64,000 nucleotides of DNA from Escherichia coli (lineage in GTDB: Bacteria; Pseudomonadota; Gammaproteobacteria; Enterobacterales; Enterobacteriaceae). The stretch lies in the NCBI RefSeq assembly GCF_030013205.1, contig NZ_CP122648.1; one strand, 5' to 3'. Positions 5,995 to 61,810 of the stretch are shown here, piece by piece (the first letter of the stretch is position 1; each line of letters begins with the position of its first letter). The notes below the pieces were generated by a model that was not told where the DNA came from, searched no databases, and saw only the letters and a list, made by a program, of their open reading frames with translations. Made by a program: the position numbers and the translations under genes.

Positions 5995-6267
5995 ATGTCT
6001 CATACCATCCGTGATAAACAGAAACTGAAAGCGCGTGCCAGTAAGATTCAGGGCCAGGTCGTGGCGCTCAAGAAAATGCTCGACGAGCCGCACGAATGCG
6101 CTGCAGTTTTACAACAGATTGCTGCTATCCGTGGCGCGGTAAACGGTCTGATGCGGGAAGTGATTAAAGGTCATCTGACGGAACACATCGTTCACCAGGG
6201 GGATGAGCTAAAACGTGAAGAAGATCTGGATGTCGTTCTGAAGGTGCTGGATTCTTATATCAAATAA
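5995..6267 (+). CDS. rcnR: Ni(II)/Co(II)-responsive transcriptional repressor (CsoR/RcnR family)
   Basis: 90 aa; sequence recognised as RcnR; divergent from rcnA. Confidence 0.9.
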
Positions 6268-6359
6268 TTTATTAACGCGATTGTAAAACTGCGGTTTTTA
6301 CTCGTTTACAACGCGTGCGCTGGACATTACCATCCTCCTCTGCGATTTATCATCGCAAT

Positions 6360-6437
6360 CAAACGACTCGGGGTGCCCTTCTGCGTGAAGGCTGAGAAAT
6401 ACCCGTATCACCTGATCTGGATAATGCCAGCGTAGGG
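6360..6437 (+). repeat. Left copy of 78-bp direct repeat: TPP-riboswitch aptamer segment without downstream expression platform (att-like)
   Basis: Identical base-for-base to 15250-15327; sequence diverges immediately on both sides. Confidence 0.85.
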
Positions 6438-6520
6438 GGCCAAAATAGTCTTGAAAATTATGTGGTTGTATCTCTTTTTGACCATAAATCATGCTGTTAA
6501 GGTACAAAAAGGGGTCGTTT

Positions 6521-7828
6521 ATGAGGTCAAGAACTCTCCCATACACATTTCAGCGAAACGGTAATTACTATCTACAAATCCGGCTTTCGGATGGTCGGAT
6601 ATACAAAAAATCACTTTTTACTGACAGTTATCGCGAAGCATCGGCGTTGATGATTGGCCTTACTCCGCACATTCCTTTCGTTAAATCACTCGCTACTCCG
6701 TTGCCGCAATTTAATAAGTTTGTTTCAAACTTGATCGCTTCGTCACGTAACGTAATGATTCCGTTGCCACTCCCTCAGCAATTGAACAATATTTCTAAAG
6801 AAGTTTTGCAGCTTCAACCACCAGCCAAACCGGAAAAGGTGCTAACACTTGCTGATGCGTGGGCTATGTACAAGGAGGAAAGAGGTCGAAATTGGACAAA
6901 ATCGATCTCAATGGCAAATGAGCGTTATATGGAGGTATTGCTTGTTGTCTTGGGAAAAGAAACAGACGTAACGGCAATCACCAAACAAGATATTAAGCGA
7001 GTAATGGAAACTGTCGAAAACTTACCAAAGCGTGTAGTGCAACCGTATAGGTCAATGACTATTCAGCAACTAATCGAATGTGATGATGTGCTGCCAGAGG
7101 ATTTAGTTGGTGCTGAGGCTGTACATAAGCACCTTAAAATCTACAAATCGTTATTCAAAACATTTCTGACTGAAAACAAAGATATTCTATCTAAGTCTCC
7201 GACTGATGGAATAGTAGCGGCACCATCCAAAGCTAGGTTTGGTGCATACAGTGCAGCAGAAATGAAAAAATTTGTAGGATGGGCACTAAAGCAGCCTGAT
7301 GGATGGCAGAAGTGGATCACTTTGTTGTTGGCGTACACAGGAGCCAGAAGAGGTGAGATTGCTAAACTGGAGAAGTCGCAGATCAAATTTGATGAAGATA
7401 GCCAGCGGCACTATCTTCTGATCGCGGAAAGAAGGCTGGGTAAAACTGAGAATGCTACAAGACAGGTAGTGATTCATCCCAAACTGATTGAGTGGGGGTT
7501 TCTGGATTTTGTTAACCGCCAATGGAAAGAGAAAATCTTTTCGGAAGTCTCAGGTCGAAATATGTCAAAGATAGGTAAAGTTCTTTCAGATGTTCGTGAT
7601 CAGCTTGATATTCCTTATCTTGATGATTATGGGCAGCGGCGCTTGGTGCATAGTTTCCGGCATACTATGATTTCTACTTGTTTAGCTGGTTGGGTGAGTA
7701 ATTTGGCGCATCTGCAACAGGTGGTAGGTCATGAGAAAAGCGGTTTAGGGATTACCAGACGCTATTTGCACTCTTTTCCTTTACGTTCAATTTGTTACGT
7801 GATTGATGGTTTGGACTGGTTAAATTGA
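6521..7828 (+). CDS. Tyrosine site-specific integrase (phage/P4-like integrase family)
   Basis: C-terminal catalytic motifs TGARRGE, HSFRHT (HxxR) and RRYLH (Tyr nucleophile); ATG 6521 with AGGGG RBS preferred over 6491. Confidence 0.85.
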   Translation: MRSRTLPYTFQRNGNYYLQIRLSDGRIYKKSLFTDSYREASALMIGLTPHIPFVKSLATPLPQFNKFVSNLIASSRNVMIPLPLPQQLNNISKEVLQLQPPAKPEKVLTLADAWAMYKEERGRNWTKSISMANERYMEVLLVVLGKETDVTAITKQDIKRVMETVENLPKRVVQPYRSMTIQQLIECDDVLPEDLVGAEAVHKHLKIYKSLFKTFLTENKDILSKSPTDGIVAAPSKARFGAYSAAEMKKFVGWALKQPDGWQKWITLLLAYTGARRGEIAKLEKSQIKFDEDSQRHYLLIAERRLGKTENATRQVVIHPKLIEWGFLDFVNRQWKEKIFSEVSGRNMSKIGKVLSDVRDQLDIPYLDDYGQRRLVHSFRHTMISTCLAGWVSNLAHLQQVVGHEKSGLGITRRYLHSFPLRSICYVIDGLDWLN

Positions 7829-7927: not shown

Positions 7928-9499
7928 ATGGTTGCTCGTTCTAACCTTGTAAATTTAGATGCACTGATTAAGCGTGCTGATTTAGGTTTAAAGATCCAAG
8001 ATAACTCTTCATTTGAAACGCTAAACAGTATTCCTGCAAGAGAATTGAAATCAGGAAGTGGAATTGCTGCGCTTCTGAGAAAACCAGATTTCCAGCGTGA
8101 AACAAATCATTGGGGGCCTGAGCAGGTTGTATCGCTTCTCGAATGCTACATCAATGGTGATTTGATACCTTCCGTTATTCTTTGGCGGTCTTCAACCCAT
8201 CTTTTTGTGATCGATGGTGGTCATCGTTTAAGTGCGTTACGTGCTTGGGTTGAAGATGATTATGGCGACGGTCATATATCCCATCAACTTTTTGGGCATG
8301 ATATTCCTCGTGAACAACGCCGCGCTGCAGATAGAACGAGAAAGCTTGTGAAGGAGAGGGTCGGTAGCTGGGAATATTATCAGAAGTTGCTTGCCGATGA
8401 TGCTTCATTGACCGAGGAACAGCAGAGAAGAATCAGCGTATTAACATCTCGTGGAATCTCAGTCCAATGGGTAGTGGGTGATGTAGATAAGGCAGAAACT
8501 TCATTTTTTAACATCAATATGAAGGGAACTCCTCTTGATGCTATCGAAGAGATGCTTCTAAAAAATCGCAAGAAAAGTATTCCGATAGCAACCCGAGCAA
8601 TTATTCGTGCCGGTAGAGGTCATCGCTATTGGTCGGGGTTTGATCAGAGCATTGCCCAGCAACTTGAAGATAAATCTGCAAAGCTGCATCGTTTGCTGTT
8701 CGAACCTGAAGTTGATCGCCCTATTAAAACTCTTGATCTTCCATTAGGCGGTTCTAGGGGGGTCAGGACAGCGATCCAAGTTTTGAAAGATTTCTTACTG
8801 ATCACTGATTGCAACCAGAATGGTGTTTTGAAAAAAATCGAAGCCTACCCTGATGATGCGTCGGGTGCTGATACGTTAAGAATCCTTTCCAAAGCCACAT
8901 CATTAAGCAATAGAATTACAGGCAATGGCGATGGTAGCTTGGGGCTTCATCCAGCGATTTATTTTTATGGTCCGACTGGAATCCACTCAACGCCAATGTT
9001 TCTAGGAACTGTGCTACTGGTGGCAAAACAACTCTCTAACAATAATGGTCAATTCTTTAAAGACTTCACAACAATCAGATCTAGGCTTGAGAGAATAATG
9101 ATCGAATTTAAGGACTTGATCGCAATGATAGTACAAAAACCAGGTAGTAATGTCCGAGTGGCTCGCTACTGTGATTTTTTAAATGCGGTGATCAAATCAC
9201 TCAAGCAGGGAGAGAATATTGATGAGAGTAAGCTTATCGAGCTGGCCGAATTGGAGGGGAGAATACTCTCTGGAGATTTTAAGAGAACATCAGCAAAAAT
9301 CAGCGATGAACAAAAAAGTAAGGTGTTCATTGACGTGGCTCTGCGCAACGCTTTGAAATGTCCGATTTGCCAAGGTTACCTTGATACTGAAAAGTCAGTT
9401 TCTTATGATCATATCGTACGTGTCCGTGAGGGAGGAGATGGTAATTCTGACAATGTACAGTTGACACACCCTTACTGTAACCAGTCAGTGAAGTGTTAA
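7928..9499 (+). CDS. ParB-like (DUF262/DGQHR-type) N-terminal domain fused to C-terminal HNH endonuclease; candidate defence/type IV restriction-like nuclease
   Basis: N-terminal motifs PDFQRETNHW and VIDGGHRLSAL; C-terminal CPICQ…YDHIVRV…NSDNVQLTHPYCN (HNH with Cys ligands); GAGGAA RBS before ATG 7928. Confidence 0.6.
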   Translation: MVARSNLVNLDALIKRADLGLKIQDNSSFETLNSIPARELKSGSGIAALLRKPDFQRETNHWGPEQVVSLLECYINGDLIPSVILWRSSTHLFVIDGGHRLSALRAWVEDDYGDGHISHQLFGHDIPREQRRAADRTRKLVKERVGSWEYYQKLLADDASLTEEQQRRISVLTSRGISVQWVVGDVDKAETSFFNINMKGTPLDAIEEMLLKNRKKSIPIATRAIIRAGRGHRYWSGFDQSIAQQLEDKSAKLHRLLFEPEVDRPIKTLDLPLGGSRGVRTAIQVLKDFLLITDCNQNGVLKKIEAYPDDASGADTLRILSKATSLSNRITGNGDGSLGLHPAIYFYGPTGIHSTPMFLGTVLLVAKQLSNNNGQFFKDFTTIRSRLERIMIEFKDLIAMIVQKPGSNVRVARYCDFLNAVIKSLKQGENIDESKLIELAELEGRILSGDFKRTSAKISDEQKSKVFIDVALRNALKCPICQGYLDTEKSVSYDHIVRVREGGDGNSDNVQLTHPYCNQSVKC

Positions 9500-9887: not shown

Positions 9888-10235
9888 TTAAATTTCAGAA
9901 CATAGGCTAAGCGTATAGACAGCAGTTTGCCCATCATTGTTAGTCGGTCTCATAACGAAAACAGGCTGACTCCCATTATCAATGTATGTGACTGCAACCC
10001 CTCCATCAGGTGTGGCATACATTTTTGCGATGCTTTTTTGACCTATAAAATCAAGTCTCCAAGTCTTACCACCAAGATGTATTGTCATTTTTTTATCTTG
10101 TATATCAAAAGTTGAATCTACAGAAACTTTCTGACTTCCCGAGTCAATATGACCTTCCTGTATTGCTTTACAGGAAAAGGTTGTGGCGTGGCCCATCACT
10201 GGAATTAACAAAGCGGCAAATACTAGTTTTTTCAT
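9888..10235 (-). CDS. Small secreted/periplasmic hypothetical protein (115 aa)
   Basis: Internal ATG with GGGAG RBS; signal peptide MKKLVFAALLIPVMGHA; no family recognised. Confidence 0.5.
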   Translation of the reverse strand: MKKLVFAALLIPVMGHATTFSCKAIQEGHIDSGSQKVSVDSTFDIQDKKMTIHLGGKTWRLDFIGQKSIAKMYATPDGGVAVTYIDNGSQPVFVMRPTNNDGQTAVYTLSLCSEI

Positions 10236-10345: not shown

Positions 10346-10810
10346 ATGCGAAAGAATCTGAGATACCTTTTTGGACAACGAGTAAAAGAGTTCCGTATAG
10401 CTATTGGCTTAAGCCAAGAGGCCTTTGCAGATCGGTGTGGTTTTGCTCGTAGTTATATGAGTCGAATTGAGCGTGGTTGCTCTAATGCATCTCTTGATGC
10501 AATTGAGGTTCTGGCTGACGCTTTGCGTATTGAGCCTTGGCAGTTACTAGCTTCTGATTCAAGGAAAACTGATGATCAGGAGGTACTTGTTCCTTATGCT
10601 GCAGATGGGTCGTGTTTTCATCCAGGATTGGCAAGTACTCGCGATGGTTCGTTTAGAGTAGGGGAAAAATCAGCCCAGAAACGTTTCAGTTCGTTCAATG
10701 ACGCTCTCGAATACCTTCGTGGAATGGAAACCGCGAAGTGGCGTAGGCCTAATGCTAGTGGTAATTGGGGAATTGTATCTGCGGTTAAATGGGATCGACT
10801 GAATCAATAA
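10346..10810 (+). CDS. XRE-family (Cro/CI-type) HTH transcriptional regulator with uncharacterised C-terminal domain
   Basis: HTH segment LSQEAFADRCGFARSYMSRIERG; start codon uncertain (GTG 10310 or ATG 10346). Confidence 0.55.
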   Translation: MRKNLRYLFGQRVKEFRIAIGLSQEAFADRCGFARSYMSRIERGCSNASLDAIEVLADALRIEPWQLLASDSRKTDDQEVLVPYAADGSCFHPGLASTRDGSFRVGEKSAQKRFSSFNDALEYLRGMETAKWRRPNASGNWGIVSAVKWDRLNQ

Positions 10811-10976: not shown

Positions 10977-11516
10977 TTACGCCTCCTCTTCTTCCTTCTT
11001 AATTCGCTGTACCGTCGAAGGAGCAACATTAAAGATCTCGGCGGTTTTACGCACTGACACGCCATCAGAAAGGGCTTTCTTTATACCTTCTCGATCCACT
11101 GCCTTACCTTTACCACGCTTTCTAGGATTGACGGCTTGCGCTTCTCGTTTACGTTCTAACATCAGTTCACGTTCACACGTTGCCACTGCCGACAACATAG
11201 TAAGCATCATTTTTCCCATCGCGCTTGTAATGTCTGCAATGATCCCTTCTTTGTGAAAGCGAACAATTACACCACGATTATTAAGTTGTTCCACTAAGGC
11301 AAGAATGTCTAAGGTGTTACGCCCTAAACGATCAAGAGAGTGGACGTGTAAGGTGTCGCCTTCTCTCAGATAGGCTAAACACGCTTGTAAGCCTGGGCGG
11401 TTAGTGTCTTTACCAGACAGCTTATCTTCAAAGACTTTGTCGAGAGTTAGTCCTGCAAGCTGGCGATCAGTATTTTGATCTACAGTGCTCACACGCTTAT
11501 AGCCGATATTGCTCAT
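10977..11516 (-). CDS. Serine recombinase (resolvase/DNA invertase family)
   Basis: N-terminus MSNIGYKRVSTVDQNTDRQ (catalytic Ser motif), C-terminal HTH; ATG 11516 with AAGGGGA RBS. Confidence 0.8.
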   Translation of the reverse strand: MSNIGYKRVSTVDQNTDRQLAGLTLDKVFEDKLSGKDTNRPGLQACLAYLREGDTLHVHSLDRLGRNTLDILALVEQLNNRGVIVRFHKEGIIADITSAMGKMMLTMLSAVATCERELMLERKREAQAVNPRKRGKGKAVDREGIKKALSDGVSVRKTAEIFNVAPSTVQRIKKEEEEA

Positions 11517-11564
11517 AAAATCCCCTTGATGTATCGATTTGGCACCACTCCAATGCAAATGAGT

Positions 11565-11660
11565 GTGTTGTATTCATTTGGTCTGTTTCAAGCCTTATGG
11601 ATACGGAATATTACACGATTTAGCTGTATTCATTTGGTATGCCTAATGGATACGCAGGGG
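11565..11660. promoter_or_regulatory. res-like recombinase binding sites upstream of the serine recombinase gene
   Basis: Two similar subsites TGTATTCATTTGGT…ATGGATACG with internal imperfect dyad symmetry, directly upstream of recombinase start. Confidence 0.4.
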
Positions 11661-11769
11661 GATAGATTAAATGGTGTTCTGTTTATACAGGTTTATTTGT
11701 TAGATCAACAAGTTGGCATTTCTAAACAGATGTTTGAACGTTGCCAAATGCCTTGACAACACAAGAAAA

Positions 11770-12720
11770 TGGCTTGCTATGAACGCATTACACGAAATAA
11801 GGCTATAAAAACAAAATAAATTTTAAAATTTGCACAAAAACGAGAAAACTCGTTCGACAAATAATAGATTGGTTTTTAATCGACAATTTCTGACAATTTC
11901 TGATGGTGCTCTGTAAACCGCATTACACAAGGCTTTGCGAAAGTGATGTAAAAGTGAAGAAAGTTAACATTGCACTTTGAAGCCATTTTTCATTGGATTT
12001 TTTAGTAGGGAATTACACAGGGAATAGAGAGCATTATTCTATGATTTACACAGGGAATATAGGGGATTATGGCACACACATAGAAAGGCATTACACAGAG
12101 TGAGTGCTATGTGATGATTGGTAGTAACGGTAGGTCACTGTGAGCTACCCCCCACAGAATTCTGTTACCCCTATCAAGTCTAACAGGGGTTTATAAAGAA
12201 TAATAAACCGATGATACCCCTATCAATATTGATACCCCTATTAGCTTTGATATGACTACCCCTATCAAAACTGATACCCGATAAGAATAAGTTAATAAGA
12301 ATAATTAAATAATATTCTTTATATCTATATATATGATCTTTTTGCCTTCCGGCGTTAGCTTCACTCTCTGGCAAGCAGCCTTACTCCGCTATCTTTGGGC
12401 TTCGTGGCTGGCCCGTTCCGCTCACACCGAAAGCAAAGCGTTACTCTTCTTCGTGTAACTATCGTTGGCGGTAACGCCACACGAAGAAATACTATTGCGC
12501 TGTGCGCAGTAAGAGTAATCACCTAACCAATCACCTGATTGCTTACGTGTTAACTCTCTCTAACTCTTAATTACCCTCCTACATTTAATAACTCTATTAT
12601 TCTCTGTAGTTGTGTAATTACTCGAAGAGAGAGCGGCTAAAGCTCAATTACACTCTGCTTTCCTCGTGTAATTTCACTAAGCCTCAATACAATTTCACTT
12701 CCTACATTCTGTAGTCGTGT
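11770..12720. repeat. Iteron-like repeat cluster in 1.9 kb ORF-free AT-rich region (putative origin or regulatory hub)
   Basis: Five direct copies of (C)ATTACACAG at ~11777-12100, four copies of TACCCCTATCAA at ~12163-12270, reverse-orientation GTGTAAT copies at ~12451-12715. Confidence 0.5.
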
Positions 12721-13503
12721 AATAGTTTTCGGTGGGGAAAAGCCAGAGGCGACACCGAAAGAAAATTCTGATCTTATTAATCTTATCTATCTTAGTTAAT
12801 CTTCTTACTTACTTTATCTACTTTATTATTAATAATAGCTTTATAAGCTCTCTGTGTAGCTCTCTGACGCAAGAAACAGCATTCAGGAAGGGAATCACCT
12901 TAGAAAAGTGTTCTTTGCGTCATAATGTGTTTTATGAAGGATTCAGAGGTGTTTCATAACACAAGGTATAGAGGATATTTTAGTTAATTAAAAATAAGGG
13001 GGCTAAATGCTTCTCTAACAGCATTAAGCAGGGTAGAGAATGGAAATGCATTGCCTACGTATATATAAACTCACTACAAGGCTTTACAGAGCGTTTTATA
13101 AAGTAACTAATCTAAGAACTCTCTGTTTTATATCTATCATCATCTTTCCATCATCTAACAAATACAAAATAAGCCCCTTAAATAAGCCTCTGGCGAGCTA
13201 AACAGCCATTACATAAGGGAATGTATTTCTTTTATCAAAACTTCGTTAGAACGCGTTTTAGAGCGTTTTATACAATAAGGAAGAATAGGACCGTCCGCAA
13301 GAGCACGAATTGCTAAGAAAGAATGTAAACGCATGAAAAATATCAGATTTTTTATGAAAATATATTGACAAATGTTTCTTTATATGTAATAATAGGTATT
13401 AGAGAGACAGAAAAACATTCTTCTCTAAATAATCAAAATCAATGCACTTTGAAGCCGTCAGGCTTGCAAGGTGTTTTTCTTTTAACTGAATAAGGAGTTT
13501 TTT

Positions 13504-13936: not shown

Positions 13937-14599
13937 ATGATTAAACATACAAAACCTTTCTTAGGAATAGATTATGACTTACTAGCAATCACTTCCCTAG
14001 TGATTAACGGCAAAACAAAAGAAGTAAAACTACATCATAAGATCATTTATTCTTATTTGTTAAGTTTATCTGGCACATATCAAAAGGTAACACCATCTTT
14101 GAAAGGTATTGGTGAGCGGTTAGGAGTAGGTACAGATCAGACGGTACGCCGTCATATCAAAGATCTTGTTTCTTTTGGATGGTTGAAGATTGAGGAAAGG
14201 GCAGGTAGCACAAATGCTTATATTGTCCTTCCTTATGAACAAGAAGCCCAGACACAACAAGAAGCTACCGTTAAAGCTGTTCAGGAACAGCTTCCCCCTA
14301 CGGAAGATAATAAAGAGTTTTCTTTTGATGTTCTTGATGATTGGGATGCGCCTTTACCTTGGGAAATGGAAGAAACGCCATCTGATGAAAAGGTAGCTAA
14401 TGATAATGAGGAGGATGTGTTAGAGAATTTTGCCTCTCTTATCATCCAGGAGAAACACACAAGAACAGGAGGGGCATCATTTATAGAATTTGCAACATCG
14501 TTAGCCTGTAAGCACAGGATAAAGCTACCAAATGGTATTGAGGCATATTTTGCTAAGAAACATCCCAAAGTATATGAAGACTTTGATATTCCATTTTAA
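13937..14599 (+). CDS. HTH (winged-helix-like) protein with acidic linker; possible iteron-binding replication or regulatory protein
   Basis: 220 aa; AAGGAG RBS; HTH-like segment LKGIGERLGVGTDQTVRRHIKDLVSFGWL; sits beside iteron region. Confidence 0.45.
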   Translation: MIKHTKPFLGIDYDLLAITSLVINGKTKEVKLHHKIIYSYLLSLSGTYQKVTPSLKGIGERLGVGTDQTVRRHIKDLVSFGWLKIEERAGSTNAYIVLPYEQEAQTQQEATVKAVQEQLPPTEDNKEFSFDVLDDWDAPLPWEMEETPSDEKVANDNEEDVLENFASLIIQEKHTRTGGASFIEFATSLACKHRIKLPNGIEAYFAKKHPKVYEDFDIPF

Positions 14600-14794: not shown

Positions 14795-15052
14795 TTATAA
14801 CTTCGTGGTGTCAAGTCCAGCAGTTTTGAGTCGCTCGGTAAGATTTCTCATTTTGCTGAACTCTGTACCAAAGCTGGCTTTAAGTCCTACACCTTCGCAA
14901 AACTCTTTTGCCGTGACGTTTTTCAGATGGTCAACATATTTGGTCATCTGGAGGTGCATTTCCATCGTTTGGCTATTTCGTGATGCGCTGCTAATGGCTT
15001 GCTTAATGTTCTCGTAGATCTGGGTTCTGTCATTGTTTATCCCACCTATCAA
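14795..15052 (-). CDS. Hypothetical protein (weak call; no in-frame ATG at ORF start)
   Basis: 85-aa ORF begins at TTG; first in-frame ATG would give 56 aa; no family recognised. Confidence 0.25.
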   Translation of the reverse strand: MIGGINNDRTQIYENIKQAISSASRNSQTMEMHLQMTKYVDHLKNVTAKEFCEGVGLKASFGTEFSKMRNLTERLKTAGLDTTKL

Positions 15053-15249
15053 ATTTAGAAAAATAATATTAATTAGCTAATTAATATAATCAATGGTTTT
15101 CACCATCTGAATGATAGCCGTTAATTGTTTCTTTTTCATTCCTTCTATGGGGTACAAAATGGGGTACACAGAGAAGAAGCAATTAATGGAGGCGAGCTTG
15201 CATCTGCAAGCCACTTCCCCTAAGCTGGCACAAAATATAGAGATTCAAC

Positions 15250-15327
15250 CAAACGACTCGGGGTGCCCTTCTGCGTGAAGGCTGAGAAATACCCGTATCA
15301 CCTGATCTGGATAATGCCAGCGTAGGG
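15250..15327 (+). repeat. Right copy of 78-bp direct repeat (part of intact thiM riboswitch)
   Basis: Identical to 6360-6437. Confidence 0.85.
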
Positions 15328-15379
15328 AAGTCACGGACCACCAGGTCATTGCTTCTTCACGTTATGGCAGGAGCAAACT
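15250..15379 (+). promoter_or_regulatory. thiM TPP (THI-box) riboswitch: aptamer plus expression platform
   Basis: Sequence CGACUCGGGGUGCCCUUCUGCGUGAAGGCUGAGAAAUACCCGUAUCACCUGAUCUGGAUAAUGCCAGCGUAGGGAAGUC… recognised as thiM riboswitch; directly precedes thiM start. Confidence 0.9.
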
Positions 15380-16168
15380 ATGCAAGTCGACCTGCTGAGT
15401 TCCGCGCAATCTGCGCACGCGTTACACCTTTTTCACCAACATTCCCCTCTTGTGCATTGCATGACCAATGATGTGGTGCAAACTTTTACTGCCAATACCT
15501 TACTGGCGCTCGGTGCATCGCCAGCGATGGTTATCGAAACCGAAGAAGCCAGTCAGTTTGCGGCTATCGCCAGTGCGTTGCTGATTAACGTTGGCACACT
15601 GACGCAGCCACGCGCACAGGCGATGCGTGCCGCCGTTGAACAGGCAAAACGCTCTCAAACACCCTGGACGCTTGATCCAGTAGCGGTTGGTGCACTCGAC
15701 TATCGCCGCCGTTTTTGTCTGGAACTTCTGTCTCATAAGCCAACCGCCATACGTGGTAATGCTTCGGAAATCATGGCATTAGCTGGCATTGCTAATGGCG
15801 GACGGGGAGTGGATACCACTGACGCCGCAGCTAATGCGATACCCGCTGCACAAACACTGGCACGGGAAACTGGCGCAATCGTCGTGGTCACAGGCGAGGT
15901 GGATTATGTTACCGATGGCCATTGCACCGTTGGCATTCACGGTGGCGATCCGCTAATGACCAAAGTGGTAGGAACTGGCTGTGCATTATCGGCGGTTGTC
16001 GCTGCCTGTTGTGCGCTACCAGGCGATATGCTGGAAAATGTCGCATCTGCCTGTCACTGGATGAAACAAGCCGGAGAACGCGCAGTCGCCAGTAGCGAGG
16101 GGCCAGGCAGTTTTGTTCCACATTTCCTTGATGCGCTCTGGCAATTGACGCAGGAGGTGCAAGCGTGA
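15380..16168 (+). CDS. thiM: Hydroxyethylthiazole kinase
   Basis: 262 aa, recognised ThiM sequence; riboswitch upstream. Confidence 0.95.
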
Positions 16169-16965
16169 AACGAATTAACGCTCTGACGATTGCCGGTACT
16201 GATCCGAGTGGTGGTGCGGGGATTCAGGCCGATCTTAAAACCTTCTCGGCACTTGGCGCTTATGGTTGCTCAGTTATTACTGCACTGGTGGCGCAAAATA
16301 CCCGTGGTGTACAGTCGGTGTATCGCATTGAGCCTGATTTTGTCGCCGCCCAGCTCGATTCGGTGTTCAGCGATGTGCGAATCGACACCACTAAAATCGG
16401 TATGTTGGCGGAAACCGATATTGTTGAAGCGGTGGCAGAACGGTTGCAACGTTATCAGATCCAAAACGTGGTACTCGACACCGTTATGCTGGCAAAAAGC
16501 GGCGACCCGCTGCTTTCACCTTCGGCGGTTGCTACGCTGCGCAGTCGATTATTGCCACAGGTTTCATTAATAACGCCAAACTTGCCCGAAGCTGCTGCCT
16601 TGCTCGACGCGCCACACGCGCGCACCGAACAGGAAATGCTGGAACAAGGGCGATCGCTGTTGGCGATGGGCTGTGGCGCAGTGCTAATGAAAGGTGGTCA
16701 TCTGGATGATGAGCAAAGCCCTGACTGGCTGTTTACTCGTGAGGGGGAACAACGATTTACTGCACCGCGCATTATGACCCAAAACACCCACGGCACTGGT
16801 TGTACGCTCTCTGCGGCGTTGGCTGCACTACGCCCGCGCCATACAAACTGGGCTGACACCGTACAGGAGGCAAAAAGCTGGCTTTCATCGGCGTTAGCCC
16901 AGGCCGACACGCTGGAAGTTGGTCACGGTATTGGTCCGGTTCACCACTTCCACGCCTGGTGGTGA
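16165..16965 (+). CDS. thiD: Hydroxymethylpyrimidine/phosphomethylpyrimidine kinase
   Basis: 266 aa; GTG start overlapping thiM stop (translational coupling). Confidence 0.95.
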
Positions 16966-31174: not shown

Positions 31175-31261
31175 AAAAAATAAGCCCGTGTAAGGGAGAT
31201 TACACAGGCTAAGGAGGTGGTTCCTGGTACAGCTAGCATTTTATGGGTTATGTTTTTCAGC
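31175..31261 (-). ncRNA. cyaR: CyaR (RyeE) Hfq-dependent sRNA
   Basis: Minus-strand sequence GCUGAAAAACAUAACCCAUAAAAUGCUAGCUGUACCAGGAACCACCUCCUUAGCCUGUGUAAUCUCCCUUACACGGGCUUAUUUUUU matches CyaR including terminator hairpin. Confidence 0.85.
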
Positions 31262-31345
31262 GAAACGGATGATAACCTTAATAAATGCAGCTGTATGTGA
31301 TCGGTTTCTAAGAATTTTCCATCCGGGAAAAATAATCGAAATTAA

Positions 31346-44577: not shown

Positions 44578-44717
44578 AAACGGGAAAGCCCCTCCCGAGG
44601 AAGGGGCCATAAATAAGGAAAGGGTCATGATGAAGCTACTCATCATCGTGGTGCTCTTAGTCATTAGCTGGCCAGCTTACTAAGACTACCAGGGCGGGGG
44701 AAACCCCGCTCTACCCT
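44578..44717 (-). ncRNA. sibB: Sib antisense sRNA (antitoxin) over ibs unit 1; boundaries approximate
   Basis: Minus-strand TTGACA-17-TACTTT promoter downstream of ibs stop; hairpin plus U-rich tract upstream of ibs start. Confidence 0.5.
44627..44683 (+). CDS. ibsB: Type I toxin Ibs (18 aa, MMKLLIIVVLLVISWPAY)
   Basis: Exact small hydrophobic ORF with tandem ATG. Confidence 0.8.
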   Translation: MMKLLIIVVLLVISWPAY

Positions 44718-44905
44718 CACTCCTGAAAGTATGCCTTCACGATAAGATTGTCAATCTGCAGGCTTTGCAGTCTGCGATCCTGCCAGCAAATATTCTTTGC
44801 GAGACGTTACGCAATAATCACACTGGAAACTATTTTATCCGCAAGTCAGCGATAGACTGCATTCAGGGCGAAAGGAGGTAAGCCGACGATTTCAGCGGGA
44901 CGCTG

Positions 44906-45045
44906 AAACGGGAAAGCCCCTCCCGAGGAAGGGGCCTTAAATAAGGAAAGGGTCATGATGAAGATACTCATCATCGTGGTGCTCTTAGTGATTAGCTACC
45001 CAGCATACTAAGACTACCAGGGCGGGGGAAACCCCGCTCTACCCT
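44906..45045 (-). ncRNA. Sib antisense sRNA over ibs unit 2; boundaries approximate
   Basis: Minus-strand TTGACA-17-TAATTT promoter; same architecture as unit 1. Confidence 0.5.
44955..45011 (+). CDS. Type I toxin Ibs variant (18 aa, MMKILIIVVLLVISYPAY)
   Basis: Middle repeat unit; differs from flanking Ibs peptides at L4I and W15Y. Confidence 0.75.
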   Translation: MMKILIIVVLLVISYPAY

Positions 45046-45234
45046 CACTCCTGAAATTATGCCTTCACGATAAGATTGTCAATCTGCAGGCTTTGCAGTC
45101 TGCGATCCCGCCAGCAAATATTCTTTGCGAGTCGTTACGCAATAATCACAGAGGAAACTATTTTGTTCACGCGTTAGCGATAGACTGCATTCAGGGCGAA
45201 AGGAGGTAAGCCGACGATTTCAGCGGGACGCTGA

Positions 45235-45374
45235 AACGGGAAACCCTCTCCCGGAGAAGAGGGCTTTTAATAAGGAAAGGGTTATGATGAAGCACGTCAT
45301 CATACTGGTGATACTCTTAGTGATTAGCTTCCAGGCTTACTAAGAACACCAGGGGGAGGGGGAAACCTCTCCCT
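45235..45374 (-). ncRNA. sibA: Sib antisense sRNA over ibs unit 3; boundaries approximate
   Basis: Minus-strand TTGACA-17-TAATTT promoter downstream of ibs stop. Confidence 0.5.
45284..45343 (+). CDS. ibsA: Type I toxin Ibs (19 aa, MMKHVIILVILLVISFQAY)
   Basis: Exact small hydrophobic ORF. Confidence 0.8.
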   Translation: MMKHVIILVILLVISFQAY

Positions 45375-45563
45375 AACCCTCACTCCTGAAATTATGTCAC
45401 TCCGCCCTTAGTGTCAATCGACGGCTCTTCGTTCTTGCGAGGCGAATAGCAAAATTTTCTGCGCCGCCGGGCCTAATTCTGAAAGTTTCTTCGTTTGCTC
45501 TTATTTCATTATTGCAATCGGTATGATACCGGACCTCAATAATTCTCTAAGAAAGGATTTCTT

Positions 45564-60012: not shown

Positions 60013-60480
60013 AGTAAGTACAAAACCTATTCGTTGTATGACAAATGTCACAATTCGATCATGGATAAATCGGGGCAAAAATGCAATGTTGCAGCACTAT
60101 TTATCTCATATTATTTGAGGTTTATAACCTCACATTATCCCTTAATTAAAAGTGGTAATAATAAAACATTATTTAAGAAATATCGCATGTGGAGACACTA
60201 TATTAAATATTGTCAATCTAAAGAAACTCCTAAAAACCATATTGAATGACACTTAATATAATTCTTAAAAATAGCCAATTGCCGAATTGTTACCTTGCCT
60301 GCTATTCCGTTAGCTGTAACACTTCCTCCTGCATTATTGGAGAGCCAATATTCAATTACCATAATGTCACCTTATATTCGGAAGTTAATTTTCGCAATAA
60401 CCCTTTCTCATCAACGACTGTATGTTGAGAGGGTTTTAAAAATTAAGCTAAATCAGTGTATTGGTAGCTAAAAAGCCAGG

Positions 60481-60492
60481 GGCGGTAGCGTG
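60481..60492 (+). promoter_or_regulatory. ops element (RfaH recruitment site, JUMPstart) in colanic-acid operon leader
   Basis: Exact GGCGGTAGCGTG ~180 bp upstream of wza. Confidence 0.7.
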
Positions 60493-60670: not shown

Positions 60671-61810
60671 ATGATGAAATCCAAAATGAAATTGATGCCA
60701 TTATTGGTGTCAGTAACCTTGATAAGCGGTTGCACAGTACTTCCGGGCAGCAATATGTCGACGATGGGCAAAGACGTCATCAAACAGCAGGACGCTGATT
60801 TCGATCTCGACAAAATGGTGAATGTTTATCCGTTGACCCCGCGCCTGATTGACCAATTACGTCCACGACCCAACGTAGCGCGCCCCAATATGACGCTGGA
60901 AAGTGAGATCGCGAATTACCAGTATCGCGTCGGGCCGGGGGACGTTCTTAATGTCACCGTCTGGGATCACCCGGAACTCACCACGCCAGCCGGTCAGTAC
61001 CGTAGCTCCAGCGACACCGGCAACTGGGTACAGCCTGACGGCACCATGTTCTACCCGTATATCGGCAAAGTTCACGTGGTGGGGAAAACGCTCGCTGAAA
61101 TCCGCAGTGATATTACCGGGCGCTTAGCGACGTACATCGCTGACCCGCAGGTGGACGTTAATATCGCCGCCTTCCGCTCGCAAAAAGCGTATATCTCAGG
61201 TCAGGTGAATAAATCCGGTCAACAGGCCATCACCAACGTACCACTGACCATTCTCGATGCCATCAACGCCGCAGGTGGCCTGACCGACACCGCTGACTGG
61301 CGCAACGTGGTGCTAACACACAATGGTCGTGAAGAACGCATTTCTTTGCAGGCGCTGATGCAAAACGGCGACCTCAATCAGAACCGACTGCTTTATCCCG
61401 GCGATATTCTCTACGTGCCGCGTAATGATGATCTGAAAGTATTTGTGATGGGTGAAGTGAAAAAACAGAGCACCCTGAAAATGGACTTTAGCGGCATGAC
61501 CCTGACTGAAGCCCTGGGCAATGCTGAAGGCATCGACATGACCACCTCCAACGCCAGCGGCATCTTTGTCATTCGTCCGCTGAAAGGCGAGGGCGGGCGT
61601 AACGGCAAGATTGCCAATATCTATCAGCTGGATATGTCCGATGCCACGTCGCTGGTGATGGCGACAGAATTCCGCCTGCAACCTTATGACGTGGTGTATG
61701 TCACCACCGCACCGGTTTCCCGCTGGAACCGTCTGATCAATCAGTTGCTGCCAACTATTAGCGGTGTCCGTTACATGACGGATACAGCCAGCGACATTCA
61801 TAACTGGTAA
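60671..61810 (+). CDS. wza: Outer-membrane polysaccharide export lipoprotein
   Basis: 379 aa, lipobox LISGC. Confidence 0.95.

Follow-up and report, generated by a model that had tools for sequence, protein, structure and literature searches.

The 64,000-nucleotide (nt) stretch of DNA analysed here (contig NZ_CP122648.1; hereafter the window) comes from the chromosome of Escherichia coli and is 100% identical to several genomes of porcine enterotoxigenic E. coli. In it, the host gene rcnR and the genes thiM and thiD are held apart by 8.9 kb of DNA that begins with int, a gene for a tyrosine integrase, and that is bounded on either side by a copy of the aptamer of the thiM thiamine pyrophosphate (TPP) riboswitch (Table 1). 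The two copies form a direct repeat of 82 nt with one mismatch, and we refer to them as attL (left) and attR (right), after the attachment sites that they would represent. Both match the TPP model of Rfam (RF00059, gathering score 54.3 bits), the left one with 61.9 bits (6359-6454) and the right one with 71.2 bits (15249-15345). The left copy ends at GCGTAGGG (6437) and is followed by GGCCAAAATAGTC in place of AAGTCACGG, which leaves attL with neither the native 3' strand of helix P1 nor any of the expression platform; the int ATG at 6521 follows 83 nt on. The right copy runs on into AAGTCACGG, the native 3' P1 strand, and then through the native platform (15328-15379) to the thiM ATG at 15380. 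An initial annotation of this region had described the left aptamer as truncated in just this way and running into the integrase gene, and had pointed to a promoter-like sequence just after rcnR; both features are present as described.

The promoter-like sequence, TTTACA-17-TACCAT, begins 38 nt beyond the rcnR stop codon (6267) and reaches 11.4 bits in a position-weight scan, a score that occurs 0.17 times per kb per strand in the window. A simple consensus scan taken alone was not above shuffles (3 promoters found against 2.3 expected). In the published numbering of thiM, the ribosome-binding site (RBS) contains G142 and the AUG contains U152 (PMC5499598), which puts the transcription start (+1) at window position 6340, 7 nt past TACCAT. 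Because the mapped start falls there, TTTACA-17-TACCAT is very probably the real thiM promoter.

Table 1. Features of the rcnR-thiMD locus and of the island within it (positions in the window)
Positions	Strand	Feature	Basis or remark
5995-6267	+	rcnR, host gene bounding the site on the left	RefSeq annotation of an identical strain; list of open reading frames (ORFs)
6305-6333	+	Native host thiM promoter, TTTACA (6305-6310), 17 nt, TACCAT (6328-6333)	Position-weight scan; same sequence in empty sites
6356-6437	+	attL, host-derived thiM TPP aptamer copy (5' P1 strand through P5 and 3' P4 strand), cut before the 3' P1 strand	Repeat; Rfam; empty sites
6438-6520	+	Element-borne int leader, presumed P' arm of attP	Degenerate family palindrome (6438-6452); inverted repeat; ATG at 6491
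6501-6514	+	Candidate arm-type integrase site GGTACAAAAAGGGG of the left arm, overlapping the int Shine-Dalgarno sequence	Invariant in relatives
6521-7828	+	int, tyrosine integrase, 435 amino acids (aa) (445 aa if started at 6491)	PF00589, 4e-6; PHROG_1, 1.6e-26
7928-9499	+	Cargo: GmrSD-like nuclease (GmrSD_N and HNH), presumed type IV restriction enzyme	Pfam; RefSeq name
9888-10235	-	Hypothetical protein	
10346-10810	+	XRE-type helix-turn-helix (HTH) regulator	
10977-11516	-	Small serine recombinase/invertase	
11560-13500		ORF-poor stretch, 33-40% GC	Iteron-like repeats (12163-12279)
13937-14599	+	HTH_36 protein	Weak similarity to phage replication initiators
14795-15040	-	81-aa HTH_73 protein at the right end	Conserved in related elements
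15149-15168	+	Two GGGGTACA repeats, candidate arm-type sites of the right (P) arm	
15194-15230	+	Element-borne copy of the thiM promoter region	-35 TTGCAT (15198-15203), 17 nt, -10 TAAGCT (15221-15226); 28 nt before the GACTC of P1
15246-15327	+	attR, aptamer copy with element-borne 5' part	Complete riboswitch with host 3' P1 strand and platform (15328-15379)
15380-16168	+	thiM	Intact
16165-16965	+	thiD	Intact

Empty sites, junctions and the integrase family

In K-12 and two near-identical strains rcnR, the promoter, a single aptamer copy, the platform and thiM are contiguous, and the 8.9 kb between the two repeats is therefore an insertion; its GC content is 33-45%, as against 50-57% in the flanks. 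The initial annotation had made its reading conditional on the left flank being the ancestral one, and this comparison establishes that it is. Empty sites with a single copy were found in Klebsiella pneumoniae, Cronobacter sakazakii and Citrobacter as well.

The empty sites also reveal which DNA each junction received. Within the window the two repeats differ only at position 4, where attL, like the closest empty-site strains, has T and attR has C. In K. pneumoniae, C. sakazakii and Citrobacter the aptamer at attL, including its variable P3 loop, is the empty-site sequence of the host. In Citrobacter sp. MGH106, attL equals the empty site and attR has a different P3 (CCCCATCGCTGATGGG), in common with an element of Enterobacter chuandaensis that has the same right end; from the boundary of GCGTAGGG and AAGTC onwards, the attR of MGH106 is again the empty-site sequence. 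On these alignments, the comparison of P3 among empty sites, attL and attR shows that the aptamer at attL is host DNA that stays at attL and that the 5' three-quarters of the aptamer now serving thiM are element DNA, and it brackets the crossover 3' of P3, somewhere in CCTGATCTGGATAATGCCAGCGTAGGG, the exact position being inferred. The element therefore brings along a copy of part of its target, which rebuilds an intact target at one junction, as seen in MGH106 and in agreement with the single difference in the window. The P3 versions preserve the helix through compensatory changes (CCCTTC/GAAGG versus CCCCATC/GATGGG), as would be expected if the element were selected to carry a working aptamer half. 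We rejected a crossover at the 5' end of the repeated block, by which the attL aptamer would be element-borne and kept for control of int: attL is host-native in Klebsiella, Cronobacter and Citrobacter, and it is attR that has the foreign P3. Two C. sakazakii strains with the same integrase protein have differing P3 alleles at attL (CCCCATCACTGATGGG versus the species-typical CCCTTCTTCGTTGAAGG), and the odd allele may stem from an element that was there earlier or from recombination of one att copy with another.

The gene beside attL encodes a tyrosine recombinase in which the ARRGE, HxxRH, GH and RY motifs are conserved or invariant in the integrase alignment. RefSeq starts it at ATG 6521 (WP_021293394.1). 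The in-frame ATG at 6491, 30 nt upstream, shows the same degree of conservation among relatives, and in one relative from E. coli the codon equivalent to 6521 is TTG; for these two reasons the true start is ambiguous; some gene callers arrive at the 445-aa product, and in a codon-phase test of the 30 nt in question the variable columns fell 3, 3 and 5 by phase.

Integrases 69-82% identical to this one are abundant in Enterobacterales, in at least 12 genera, and some identical proteins are common to different genera, which indicates recent transfer. We inspected the loci of a second E. coli lineage (~81% identical), K. pneumoniae, Cronobacter, C. koseri and a Serratia metagenome-assembled genome (MAG), and further loci from a scan of 100,044 species, each species being represented by a single genome (Lelliottia, Erwinia, Enterobacter, Citrobacter, Silvania, Atlantibacter, Pseudenterobacter and Klebsiella sp.); the scan also turned up degraded integrase copies in Pantoea and Kosakonia. 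At every inspected locus with an intact int, a copy of a thiM-type aptamer lies upstream, its end 84 nt away from the int start (83 nt in the window), six of the relatives' attL copies scoring 60-64 bits in Rfam, and wherever the island fits within the fetched DNA a second aptamer copy and then thiM lie downstream. All else varies: the left host neighbour can be rcnR, usp, a DUF1493 family gene, a glgS-like gene or others, and the cargo HNH and AIPR genes, an AAA_15 ATPase, or a methylase with a HATPase. One integrase lineage is thus found at one target across hosts with differing flanks and cargo. Because the aptamer precedes int at this spacing in all intact loci despite such variation, the integrase family is, by this comparison of loci, specific for the thiM riboswitch as its attachment site across Enterobacterales. 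This is the main point that the initial annotation overlooked, the layout around int being the signature of an integrase family that uses a riboswitch as its attachment site.

Several arrangements in other genomes touch on the same site. In E. chuandaensis, Silvania and Erwinia the DNA upstream of attL is the right end of another element, and Erwinia has in addition an integrase fragment 4 kb upstream of attL; to judge by their junctions, these are tandem arrays of riboswitch-targeting islands. Citrobacter genomes without the integrase have a decayed TPP aptamer remnant, with several substitutions and indels, between a glgS-like gene and an HTH_46 gene with an autotransporter, which has the look of an insertion that took place at this site long ago and became fixed. 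Under the label 'MAG: Flavobacterium psychrophilum', a 6.5-kb contig contains an enterobacterial-type aptamer and a 77%-identical integrase and is probably a binning error.

The island of the window is present at no less than 80% coverage in 37 of 5426 complete E. coli genomes, and integrases of the family occur in 224 of the 5426, all of them chromosomal. The phage collection gave no match to the family integrase and the plasmid records nothing above 42% identity, and for this reason the family appears to be chromosomal only.

Predicted expression of int and thiMD around the integrated island

With a probability of about 80%, we interpret the region 6270-6530 as the attL of an 8.9-kb integrative island whose tyrosine integrase targets the thiM aptamer, and which would exchange promoter and aptamer as follows. 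The attP of the free element would begin with a right arm bearing arm-type repeats, followed by a diverged thiM promoter, three-quarters of the aptamer from its 5' side (5' strand of P1, P2, P3 and into P4/P5), an 84-nt leader and finally int, and recombination would take place within the part of the aptamer from P4/P5 to GCGTAGGG. After integration, thiMD would lie behind the element promoter and a chimeric but complete riboswitch, with a 5' part from the element and the 3' P1 strand and platform from the host; transcription would start at about 15233 and thiM translation would stay under normal TPP control. At the other end, the host thiM promoter and the host aptamer, cut before its 3' P1 strand, would point into int. 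Given the order of parts in attP (right end, aptamer, leader, int), int would be preceded by a thiM-type promoter and an aptamer lacking P1 in the free form just as in the integrated one. Transcripts from the thiM promoter would then enter int constitutively, and Int synthesis would be throttled not by TPP but by a conserved hairpin that buries the Shine-Dalgarno sequence and AUG of int.

The segment that such transcripts would have to cross holds no evident barrier. A terminator between the thiM promoter and int was looked for and set aside, none being predicted there and the palindrome that is typical of the family having no U tract. An int promoter within the 83-nt leader was likewise discarded, since no candidate in the leader of the window exceeds 7.6 bits and the best one overlaps the aptamer. 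As neither a terminator nor a good promoter of its own separates int from the thiM promoter, read-through into int is plausible on sequence grounds.

Two inverted-repeat segments, CTCTTTTTGACC (6472-6483) and GGTACAAAAAGGGG (6501-6514), form the core of a 21-pair hairpin over the int Shine-Dalgarno sequence and AUG. Among 12 relatives 96.8% of the cells of this hairpin are paired, with 7 pairs that change on one side and still pair and 2 that change on both. The 3' arm of the hairpin is at the same time one of only two copies of the motif GGTACAAAAWGGGG in the 64 kb, where 0.04 would be expected, and the copies lie one inside each island end, on the two sides of the core; relatives have two to three GGTACA copies in the right arm. 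This placement is the pattern of arm-type integrase sites, for which the motif is a candidate, and the conservation of the leader may thus reflect recombination, control of translation, or both. Directly after the aptamer, at the end of the block of att identity, most relatives have a perfect 15-nt palindrome, GGCCGAAATTCGGCC, and one a compensatory variant, GGCCAAAACTTGGCC; in the element of the window the palindrome is degenerate. It is possible that it acts as a core-type site, as an operator or other protein-binding site, or as an RNA hairpin.

These features could also be read in another way, in which thiM promoter and int are juxtaposed with no regulatory effect on int. Transcripts from the thiM promoter would be stopped, either by Rho on the 180-nt untranslated leader or at the GC hairpin, or would go untranslated, and int would be expressed only from signals of the element upon induction. 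The hairpin over the Shine-Dalgarno sequence and AUG fits this, as does the GC-rich palindrome that follows the aptamer in most relatives. A weak promoter, TTGACT-17-TAATGC, is kept in the relatives' leaders and is strong in one of them (TAATGT, 11.9 bits), the island encodes two or three HTH regulators, and untranslated leaders are known targets of Rho (PMC5499598). Against it stand the lack of any predicted terminator-like site, the missing U tract and the degeneracy of the palindrome in the very element of the window, and the poor scores of the promoter candidates in its leader. We regard this as the alternative to be taken most seriously, although a tentative one.

At the other junction, the last ~130 nt of related elements are conserved even where the adjoining genes differ, and contain two to three GGTACA repeats, a GCTTGC-N4-GCAAGC hairpin and CTTCCCCTAAGCTGGCA. 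In five of five related right ends the best promoter candidate on the + strand is TTGCnn-17-TAA(G/T)CT, with the -10 element ending 28-29 nt before the GACTC of P1; by direct count the native distance in E. coli is 31 nt and that in Citrobacter 29 nt. When the native upstream region of Citrobacter thiM, GGACTTGCATCAGCAAACGACTTCCTCTACGCTGCCA, is placed on positions 15194-15230 of the window, 29 of 37 positions are identical, which is the best ungapped match in the 64 kb on both strands (background mean 9.2, sd 2.6; runner-up 24), and the match begins 61 nt before GACTC in the window and 62 nt before it in Citrobacter. Because this match is the best in the window and lies in nearly the same register, the right end of the element is, by homology, a diverged copy of a Citrobacter-type thiM promoter region. 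A σ54-like CTGGCAC-N5 in the right end was dismissed, having no GC at -12. The native promoter now lies 8.9 kb away across genes on both strands, which together with the homology supports the suggestion of the initial annotation that thiMD would depend on a promoter inside the element. Over the stretch that starts 4 nt ahead of the aptamer and runs to the thiM ATG, the attR leader agrees with K-12 at 134 of 134 nt and thus comprises a complete aptamer with P1 and the native thiM platform; given this identity, the translational TPP switch of thiM should be intact.

If the right end were only a recombination arm, thiM expression would not be restored at all: thiMD would be silent or transcribed by read-through from island genes, and carriers would rely on exogenous thiamine. 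The weak promoter prediction at the right end agrees with this, as do the arm-type repeats in the conserved block and the absence of a predicted terminator between the + strand gene at 13937-14599 and attR. The homology to the native thiM promoter region in the same register speaks against it, and so do the compensatory P3 variants on the element-borne halves, which would be unnecessary were thiM unexpressed. Both thiM and thiD are intact, moreover, and thiD is required for de novo thiamine synthesis in E. coli. We therefore consider a loss of thiM expression unlikely. To a further extension of our proposal we likewise give little credence, namely that the island family captured the whole 5' control region of thiM to serve in both states as recombination target and as the transcription unit that drives int, so that each integration swaps the riboswitch allele and promoter of the host for foreign ones and ties the supply of Int to the thiM promoter and possibly to TPP. 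Were it true, aptamer variants would spread horizontally and thiamine salvage would be re-tuned at every integration.

The initial annotation had gone on to suggest that thiamine-salvage regulation and element expression may be coupled, and this part finds no support. The native switch works through a rearrangement of P1 and the platform at the RBS of thiM and, after it, termination by Rho at a Rho utilization (rut) site in thiM codons 20-34 (PMC5499598); attL has none of these parts, all of which lie across the island from it. Over its full length the covariance model can still be aligned at attL, which passes the gathering score, GGCC supplying three of five pseudo-P1 pairs with one G-U and two mismatches flagged, but the P1 helix itself (5' GACU with 3' AGUC) is lost, its 3' strand being swapped for GGCC, and no platform couples P1 to an RBS or terminator of the next gene. 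In most relatives the GGCC is taken up by its own palindrome. The AGTC at 6447-6450, 9 nt past the aptamer copy, could pair with the 5' P1 strand and is not conserved in relatives. No alternative pairing was found between the aptamer remnant and the int RBS or the hairpin that hides the Shine-Dalgarno sequence, and folding the leaders of attL and attR as single sequences gave nothing better than shuffles (z -0.75, -1.35 and 0.05), by a method that fails to recover the aptamer even in the native leader. The remnant has lesions in Lelliottia (P5 loop) and Atlantibacter (P2) and has decayed in Citrobacter genomes that lost int. That it otherwise looks intact requires no selection, because host DNA is renewed at attL with each integration. 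Thiamine control of int is thus unsupported.

The contrary case would make the truncated aptamer a working TPP sensor, with a refolding of the leader, for example by stacking on GGCC or on the long hairpin, that ties int and with it integration and excision to thiamine. It can appeal to the score of the remnant, in which all ligand-contacting helices are kept, to the pseudo-P1 pairs and the nearby AGTC, and to the position of int behind an aptamer copy in free and integrated states at a distance fixed throughout the family; set against the missing 3' P1 strand and platform, the palindrome that consumes the GGCC, the lack of conservation of the AGTC, minimum free energy folds at the level of shuffles, the renewal of the remnant from host DNA and its decay without int, it seems very improbable. 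In an observation related to this, RefSeq/PGAP labels the attL scar (6359-6454) 'TPP riboswitch' directly before the integrase, and does so in other E. coli genomes as well; the label is a systematic annotation artefact and could be misread as a riboswitch-controlled recombinase.

A number of points weigh against the promoter and aptamer exchange and the hairpin control that we favour. The element-borne promoter was missed by the consensus scan and scores only 7.6 bits by position-weight matrix, a value reached by chance 2.8 times per kb per strand. Recombination functions (arm, IHF or Xis sites), in place of transcription or RNA structure, could be what keeps the right end and leader conserved. 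The int hairpin shows modest covariation, with a score of 0.117 where shuffles give 0.095 and 2 out of 500 shuffles score as high, and the sequences compared are also the ones that the structure came from. In the window itself, the host and element copies of the aptamer are identical but for one nucleotide, which makes the assignment of donors dependent on that difference and on the relatives. A free attP junction was found neither in viral contigs nor with a first metagenome pattern, and a looser pattern retrieved two linear contigs with the junction of right end, aptamer and int that are indistinguishable from tandem arrays. Lastly, what the compared genomes show directly is the anatomy of the junctions, the empty sites and ancestral state, the target used throughout the family, which side donated each part and the homology of the promoters; the exact crossover, promoter activity, read-through and the role of the hairpin are inferred.

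Cargo of the island and other features of the window

Behind int, the cargo nuclease matches GmrSD_N (1e-11) and HNH (3e-4), the nuclease domain being HNH and not DUF1524; PADLOC gave no GmrSD model match for it, its only match there being NsnA (2e-5). Between the serine recombinase and the replication-initiator-like gene lie ~2 kb with no ORF above ~75 aa and with four to five copies of a ATACCCCTATCAA-like unit, which may serve as an origin, be invertible or have a regulatory role. The 81-aa HTH_73 protein at the right end is possibly a regulator or an excision factor. Elsewhere in the window, 44612-45417 on the - strand contains three tandem Sib antitoxin RNAs of 140-150 bits each, ~330 nt apart; K-12 has two at this locus (sibA and sibB), and the strain may thus carry an extra Sib/Ibs module. 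The small RNA (sRNA) CyaR was recognized at 31178-31263 on the - strand (100.7 bits), and a JUMPstart element at 60454-60492 on the + strand (57.3 bits), with an ORF beginning ~180 nt further downstream, at 60671.

Comparison with known integration systems

The locus itself has been tabulated before: supplementary file 4 of Hochhauser et al. (2023, PMC10121019) lists a location 'rcnR-thiM' of 7956 bp with 8 genes, RM_type_IV, and a mobile genetic element (MGE) type of 'None'. Locus and kind of cargo are the same as here; it is a table entry and not one of the numbered hotspots, and the integrase, the riboswitch target and the exchange of promoter and aptamer are not described. Use of a riboswitch as an attachment site was not found described in the literature searched, which included the TIGER paper and a 2026 genomic-island preprint, a coverage that is incomplete and yields absence of evidence only. 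We judge the feature to be a variant of target-restoring site-specific integration that we did not find described, for which priority cannot be claimed.

Should our reading hold, a riboswitch aptamer would join the short list of structured-RNA attachment sites (tRNA, transfer-messenger RNA (tmRNA) and a few sRNA loci), and the island would be a clean case of restoration on the 5' side of a target, in which the element has to contribute a promoter as well as one RNA half, the other half, with which it pairs, being that of the host. It would also mean that a mobile element can bring about horizontal replacement of thiM promoters and of riboswitch alleles, in the form of P3 variants, at a defence-island hotspot that is occupied in ~4% of complete E. 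coli genomes and recurs across Enterobacterales. With an attP of ~300 bp and int, it would offer a compact natural system for how recombinases recognise DNA that resembles an RNA gene.

Measured against the native thiM riboswitch of E. coli (RF00059; Bastet et al. 2017, PMC5499598), attR has the same sequence as K-12 over the 134 nt given above. attL shares P2 to P5 and differs in having no 3' P1 strand, no anti-sequestering and sequestering elements, no thiM RBS and no rut site.

Among integrative elements, the islands in tRNA and tmRNA genes (Islander/TIGER; PMC4383910, PMC7192596) resemble the thiM island in many respects. Both have a tyrosine integrase next to an att site, a target that is a structured, conserved RNA with stem-loops, and a partial target copy on the island, which leaves one junction intact and the other as a displaced fragment; both form tandem arrays and hit the same target across genera. 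The main texts of PMC4383910 and PMC7192596 make no mention of riboswitch targets. The thiM island differs in that its target is not an RNA gene but a cis-regulatory aptamer in an mRNA leader. Furthermore, tRNA islands restore the 3' part of their target, whereas the thiM island restores the 5' part and so has to supply a promoter too, and its displaced fragment, unlike theirs, keeps the host promoter and points into int.

It is through this restoration of the 5' side that the dusA islands (Farrugia et al. 2015, PMC4482086) are the closest known counterpart. They insert in the 5' end of dusA and replace it, with putative -35 and -10 elements upstream both before and after integration. Their integrases appear to be of a different family from those of the thiM island. 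What is exchanged differs as well: the dusA islands swap the N-terminus of a protein, whereas the thiM island would swap a promoter together with most of a ligand-binding RNA, one that has to pair with the 3' P1 strand of its host in order to work.

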